A model generated the notes under the pieces. It made no database searches. It worked only from the letters and a program-made list of their open reading frames with translations, and was not told the origin of the DNA. The translations under genes and the position numbers were made by a program. This document shows, one piece after another, positions 42,589-43,044 of a DNA stretch of 64,000 nt. The stretch comes from Shigella phage Sfk20, in the sequence record MW341595. One strand, 5' to 3'. Numbering within the stretch: position 1 is the stretch's first letter; every line of letters begins with the position of its first letter.

Positions 42589-43044
42589 TTATTTTAAATC
42601 ATCTGCCCAATCGAGTTTAAGAGGCTCTTTGTATTCACGATCTAATACGACCGGAATTTGTACATCACCGCTAAATGATAAGGGTCCAACATTATAAGAC
42701 AATGTTATATGCGGTGTGTAATCATCAAAATCATGTGTAGCACCTAGTGCCCGCGCATACATGTGTCTACAGCGCAGATATTCAGAATCTAACACAAGTA
42801 CAAGAGTCGATCCATCTTGCGTTTTCCATACTTCTAAATGTCCAGAAGAAGCTACTTCAAAACTTCCACTCGATGGAACATACGGAACATTTACTCTTGA
42901 ATAACATATGGTCGAATGAATTTTTTCTCTAGGAACTGGATTAGGAACACGTAAAGTGCGCTGGAGTTCTTCCAGCGCATCAAGTGTTAATTCTGAAAAC
43001 TTAGCTGCTACATAAAGACCCGTTGAAAAGTCTTTAAATTCCAT
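42589..43044 (-). CDS. 57B: 2H phosphoesterase (T4 57B position; Acb1-like anti-CBASS candidate)
   Basis: 151 aa; two H-x-T/S motifs (KIHSTICY and TPHITLSY) typical of 2H phosphoesterases; directly upstream of 57A. Confidence 0.7.

Follow-up and report, generated by a model that had tools for sequence, protein, structure and literature searches.

The closest described system is Acb1 of phage T4, the product of gene 57B, which was identified through activity-guided fractionation (Hobbs et al., Nature 2022, PMC9117128). T4 Acb1 has a 2H phosphoesterase fold in which the HxT/HxT tetrad formed by H44, T46, H113, and T115 is catalytic; Y12, W74, F107, and W147 stack on the bases of the ligand, E141 contacts the adenine N6, and the C-terminal lid (residues 145–152) shuts over the bound 3'3'-cGAMP (PMC9117128). 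The pocket seen in the co-crystal fits cyclic di- and trinucleotides, and the reaction is metal-independent and proceeds in two steps via a cyclic phosphate intermediate; cGG, cA4, and 3'2'-cGAMP are not cleaved by the T4 enzyme (PMC9117128). The crystallised construct lacks the first eight or so residues (PMC9117128). In T4 infection, Acb1 activity can be detected after about 15 minutes; the T4 phage with deleted acb1 has a >300-fold replication defect on CBASS hosts, while it grows normally on hosts without CBASS, and its lysates lose all cGAMP cleavage (PMC9117128). The T4 acb1 transcript is classed as middle/late. Transposon sequencing (HIDEN-SEQ) confirmed independently, for CBASS hosts, that acb1 is conditionally essential. 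The degradation of cA3 by Acb1 can expose phages to the type II Panoptes system, and the escapers inactivate acb1; deletion of acb1 in T4 leaves type I Panoptes defence unaffected.

Several other proteins can be compared with Acb1. Enzymes of the LigT / 2'-5' RNA ligase group (PF13563) share with it the two H-x-T/S motifs and the 2',3'-cyclic phosphate chemistry; however, they act on RNA ends and not on cyclic oligonucleotides, and they do not have the Acb1-type C-terminal lid. According to their description in PMC12064943, poxvirus cGAMP phosphodiesterases resemble Acb1 in their phosphoesterase fold, in active-site residues that align with it, and in coordinating the substrate through water, and they can replace acb1 in a phage (Hobbs et al. 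2025, as reported there); as described in the same source, these are eukaryotic-virus proteins with an N-terminal lid, whereas the lid of Acb1 is C-terminal. Acb2 (T4 vs.4) serves the same purpose, the removal of CBASS signals, but it is a non-enzymatic sponge with an unrelated fold.

The window analysed here is a stretch of 64,000 nucleotides from Shigella phage Sfk20 (sequence record MW341595). It belongs to a Tequatrovirus phage and is about 97–98% identical to phages already published; a 25-kb segment of it is 96–98% identical to several Tequatrovirus genomes. An intact, full open reading frame of 151 codons followed by a TAA stop is located on the minus strand at positions 42589..43044. 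The comparison of its product with T4 gp57B (NP_049750.1) revealed 150 identical residues of 151 (99.3%), with the single change S31T in T4 numbering. The Pfam model PF23474, "Anti-CBASS protein Acb1", matches residues 8–149 over the whole profile (1–144/144) with a score of 202.6 bits (E 3e-60), the cut-off being 27 bits. A match to the Acb1 of Erwinia phage FBB1 (PDB 7T26, apo, and 7T27, with 3'3'-cGAMP) covers residues 8–148 with an E-value of 1e-61. The FBB1 protein is roughly two-thirds identical to the protein from the window and retains the HxT/HxT motifs and the C-terminal tryptophan; it differs by a one-residue indel near position 79, by F in place of W74, and by Y in place of F107. 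Of 50,697 phage records searched by tblastn, 1,471 contain the protein. The protein of phage KNP1 is 100% identical to it, and the proteins of T6, RB32, AR1, and many other phages are 99.3% identical. In the Ec_O157kw record, the orthologue is labelled as "anti-CBASS protein Acb1". The NCBIfam scan with the same protein matched no family, and NCBIfam has no Acb1 model.

Taken by its sequence and position, the gene is most probably acb1 (57B) of a T4-like Tequatrovirus, and its product would be a 2H phosphoesterase that degrades CBASS signals; we estimate the probability of this reading at about 95%. The initial annotation, made from the sequence alone, had described the product of the gene in the 57B position of T4 as an Acb1-type 2H phosphoesterase. 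The full-length Pfam match and the orthology, both in sequence and in position, agree with this, and so does the alignment with T4 Acb1, in which the catalytic histidines are kept and not lost. Its description of the protein as a candidate is less apt: the identity stands, while the T4 protein, one non-conserved residue away, is already characterised in its biochemistry, its genetics, and, by way of the FBB1 orthologue, its structure. The gene is evidently an orthologue of a known enzyme, which makes it an ordinary finding rather than a new candidate.

The protein has, at the matching positions, all nine residues to which Hobbs et al. 2022 (PMC9117128) assign a function. The first catalytic H-x-T motif, read as CAT TCG ACC (42910..42918, minus strand), corresponds to H43-S44-T45, and the second, read as CAT ATA ACA (42703..42711, minus strand), corresponds to H112-I113-T114; both were read directly from the sequence. 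The T4 tetrad H44/T46/H113/T115 is equivalent to H43/T45/H112/T114. The other five residues, namely Y12, W74, F107, and W147, which stack on the bases, and E141, which contacts adenine (all in T4 numbering), are also kept. The C-terminal lid segment (42592..42615, minus strand), comprising residues 144–151 and including W146 (T4 W147), is the same as residues 145–152 of T4, and E140 (T4 E141) lies just upstream of it. The alignment of ten homologues with identities of 27–99%, from T4, Klebsiella phage JD18, Serratia phage Muldoon, Krischvirus UPWr_E1, Lw1, and Aeromonas, Acinetobacter, Vibrio, and Salicola phages, indicated that H43, T45, H112, T114, and Y11 are invariant down to 27% identity.

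The two motifs from which the enzyme class was originally deduced, IHSTICY (H43-S44-T45) and PHITLSY (H112-I113-T114), are indeed present, and their histidines are 69 residues apart. Nevertheless, such a motif pair taken alone is a weak hallmark of a 2H enzyme, since at least two H-x-T/S triplets arise in 16% of composition-preserving shuffles of this protein. The observation exceeds chance because of homology (Pfam E 3e-60, 7T26 E 1e-61, and the near identity with T4) and not because of the motifs. The AlphaFold2 model built from the single sequence has a mean pLDDT of 38 and a pTM of 0.29 and is too poor for use; therefore, the fold is assigned through homology in sequence with a protein of known structure. 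By this homology to 7T26/7T27, the structures from which the 2H fold and the mechanism are taken, the protein is predicted to adopt a compact 2H phosphoesterase fold.

The sole amino acid difference from T4 Acb1 is encoded at 42955..42957 (minus strand), where ACT (Thr30) stands instead of TCT (Ser, T4 S31). In the alignment of ten homologues, position 30 is variable and is occupied by T, S, E, D, F, K, or L; since the column tolerates all these residues, the S31T change is very unlikely to matter, and we infer that this allele would behave like T4 Acb1. The T4 gene also has its annotated start one codon earlier (ATGATG in T4, ATAATG here), so that the second Met of T4 is the first residue in the window, and the stop codon of the preceding gene 57A is TGA in T4 and TAA in the window.

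The substrates, the chemistry, and the CBASS phenotype are carried over from the literature on T4 and FBB1 Acb1, and by this analogy the following mechanism may be proposed. The enzyme would bind, in a U-shaped pocket, 3'-5'-linked cyclic di- and trinucleotides produced by host CBASS cyclases (3'3'-cGAMP, cUA, cAAA, and cAAG). The residues equivalent to Y12, W74, F107, and W147 would stack on the bases, E141 would read the adenine N6, and the C-terminal lid would shut over the ligand. The HxT/HxT tetrad would then cut on the 3' side of adenosine, with a 2',3'-cyclic phosphate as intermediate and GpAp among the linear products. Loss of the second messenger would leave the CBASS effectors inactive, and the phage would escape abortive infection. 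A further and rather improbable reading is that the targets of Acb1 in the hosts of this phage extend beyond CBASS signals, for example, to cA3 of type III CRISPR or to Panoptes decoys.

The surroundings of the gene are those of T4. The gene order is gene 1, 57A, 57B, the internal-protein gene, and trna.4, all on the minus strand, as in T4, and acb1 with its flanks is about 98% identical to T4 DNA. Immediately upstream lies gene 57A (43044..43286, minus strand), which encodes a tail-fibre assembly chaperone (Pfam GP57, E 7e-50; phrog_1002). The location of acb1 directly downstream of 57A can also be noted in T4, Muldoon, UPWr_E1, 60AhydR15PP, Berthold, 6E35-1b, and JD18. Further upstream in the co-oriented block is gene 1 (43286..44011, minus strand), encoding a dNMP kinase (phrog_139, E 1e-65; T4 synteny). 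The TAA stop codon of 57A overlaps the ATG of acb1 (TAATG), and given this overlap, the arrangement suggests that the two genes are co-transcribed and translationally coupled. The trna.4 homologue is located at 42003..42188 (minus strand). The only hits of the Rfam scan over 38000–47000 were tRNAs; it detected no structured RNA close to acb1.

Within gene 1, on the minus strand at 43642..43649, the sequence TATAAATA matches the late-promoter consensus of T4; it lies 356 nt upstream from the start of 57A and is kept in the alignment with T4. It can be regarded, by inference only, as a candidate source of middle/late acb1 expression. There are 13 sites of the TATAAATA octamer in the window against 10 expected; thus, it is not enriched. 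Similarly, the counts of sigma-70-like and terminator-like sites in the promoter and terminator scans are not above the shuffled expectation. Since the scan counts are not enriched, the promoter sites named here are only suggestive and rest on their conservation with T4.

Directly downstream of acb1, in the slot occupied by ipI in T4, there is a gene for an internal head protein of the Ip5/ipV type (42259..42516, minus strand; phrog_3499, E 1e-49). At the DNA level, it cannot be aligned with T4 ipI from the same slot; it is annotated as Ip5/ipV in ime09 and PST, and it matches no Pfam family. T4 Acb1 shares with the protein described here the slot between 57A and an internal-protein gene, as well as the tetrad, the stacking residues, E141, and the lid, whereas the downstream neighbour is of the Ip5 type here and ipI in T4. 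The initial annotation had put the enzyme immediately beside the variable internal-protein locus; this is borne out by a phrog_3499 neighbour unlike T4 ipI lying between flanks that are both about 98% identical to T4.

The comparison of repeats revealed that this cassette is bracketed by two 69-nt direct repeats, both of which are kept in T4. Copy 1 is located at positions 42206–42274 and is 83% identical to copy 2 (42536..42604, plus strand), which spans the acb1 stop codon and an early-promoter-like site. Each copy contains a promoter-like site of the form TTTACA-17-TACTAT on the minus strand; the site of copy 2 is at 42575–42547. Since both are kept in T4, the repeats look like a recombination substrate for the exchange of the cassette. 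One may go further and suppose that acb1 and the repeat-flanked cassette form one anti-defence hot spot, where the injected protein of the Ip5 type acts against a further host defence and acb1 alleles are now and then carried along when the 69-nt promoter repeats recombine; this extension seems doubtful to us.

In most public records and in PHROG 755, the gene is labelled as "RNA ligase" or "hypothetical protein". The former label raises the question of whether the gene encodes a LigT-type enzyme acting on RNA ends, that is, a 2'-5' RNA ligase or an RNA 2',3'-cyclic phosphodiesterase with a role in RNA or tRNA repair. PHROG 755 and many RefSeq records name the orthologues in this way, one record reads "putative RNA 2',3'-cyclic phosphodiesterase", the distance between acb1 and the tRNA cluster of the phage is about 2 kb, and a reaction that passes through a 2',3'-cyclic phosphate is common to the 2H superfamily. 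There is also a weak Pfam match to 2_5_RNA_ligase2 (PF13563), but its score of 13.2 bits (E 0.096) is below the cut-off of 27 and it spans no more than 44 residues, from 79 to 122, whereas the Acb1 model scores 202.6 bits over its full length. The behaviour of T4 without acb1, normal in hosts lacking CBASS and with cGAMP cleavage gone from the lysates, and the pocket shaped for cyclic di- and trinucleotides (both PMC9117128) also speak against an RNA-end substrate. With its only domain match sub-threshold and partial, the RNA ligase reading was rejected, and we consider it very improbable. The label is a legacy misnomer that reflects distant superfamily similarity only.

Even if the gene is acb1, it might be a decaying or functionally altered allele, in which S31T or the shifted start impairs this copy. 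Relatives do disrupt acb1, by a frameshift in ECp13, by a nonsense mutation in Bas43, and in escaper mutants of Bas35, and its loss in relatives has been reported as an escape from Panoptes-type guard systems. In the window, however, the frame is full, and the catalytic, stacking, and lid residues are intact. The exchange of S for T at position 30 is conservative, in a column that also takes E, D, F, K, and L; the loss of the extra N-terminal Met of T4 is unlikely to matter, as the crystallised construct does without the first eight or so residues; and the same protein occurs unchanged in KNP1. With the frame intact and the set of residues full, a decayed allele can be ruled out, and impairment of this copy by either change is the least probable of the readings considered.

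The closest DNA match of the acb1 region, with 99.1% identity, is the genome of ECp13 (PP274704.1). Its acb1 (3643..4044) has a deletion of one nucleotide in the GGGCCC run, which corresponds to approximately 42683–42688 of the window; the frame is shifted after residue 121, and the product is annotated with a length of 133 aa. This frameshift removes E141, W147, and the lid. It could be a sequencing error or a natural loss of acb1, as in Bas43 and the Panoptes escapers.

Some differences from T4 can be noted on the other side of trna.4. The tRNA cluster at 39896–40723 (minus strand) contains ten genes, for Arg, Asn, Tyr, Met (CAT), Thr, Ser, Pro, Gly, Leu, and Gln, against eight in T4. The additional ones are Asn and Tyr, the homing-endonuclease gene segB does not interrupt the cluster, and the tRNA with the CAT anticodon sits where T4 has tRNA-Ile. 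Three ORFs between the cluster and trna.4 (41621..42040, 41328..41624, and 40810..41334, all on the minus strand) match no Pfam family. The ORF in the trna.3 slot is listed with 139 aa (phrog_1411); it is T4-like only at its 3' end, the rest being strongly diverged.

The second anti-CBASS gene of T4 is also found in the window. The vs.4 gene, encoding the cyclic-nucleotide sponge Acb2, is located about 11.5 kb from acb1 (30788..31054, minus strand); a tblastn comparison showed that 88 of 88 residues are identical to T4 NP_049728.1, and the Pfam family Acb2_Tad1_hairpin is matched with an E-value of 7e-20. Judging by these matches, both known T4 anti-CBASS genes, acb1 and acb2, are evidently carried by this phage.

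The "RNA ligase" and "hypothetical protein" labels, together with the lack of an Acb1 model in NCBIfam, indicate that automated annotation systematically misses acb1, and the analysis can be used for correcting these labels in public records. For the phage itself, the presence of the usual anti-CBASS pair of T4, nuclease Acb1 and sponge Acb2, adds little to what is known and raises no new question. As to host range, resistance to many CBASS systems would be predicted, along with a potential sensitivity to Panoptes-type guard systems, which sense the depletion of cyclic nucleotides.
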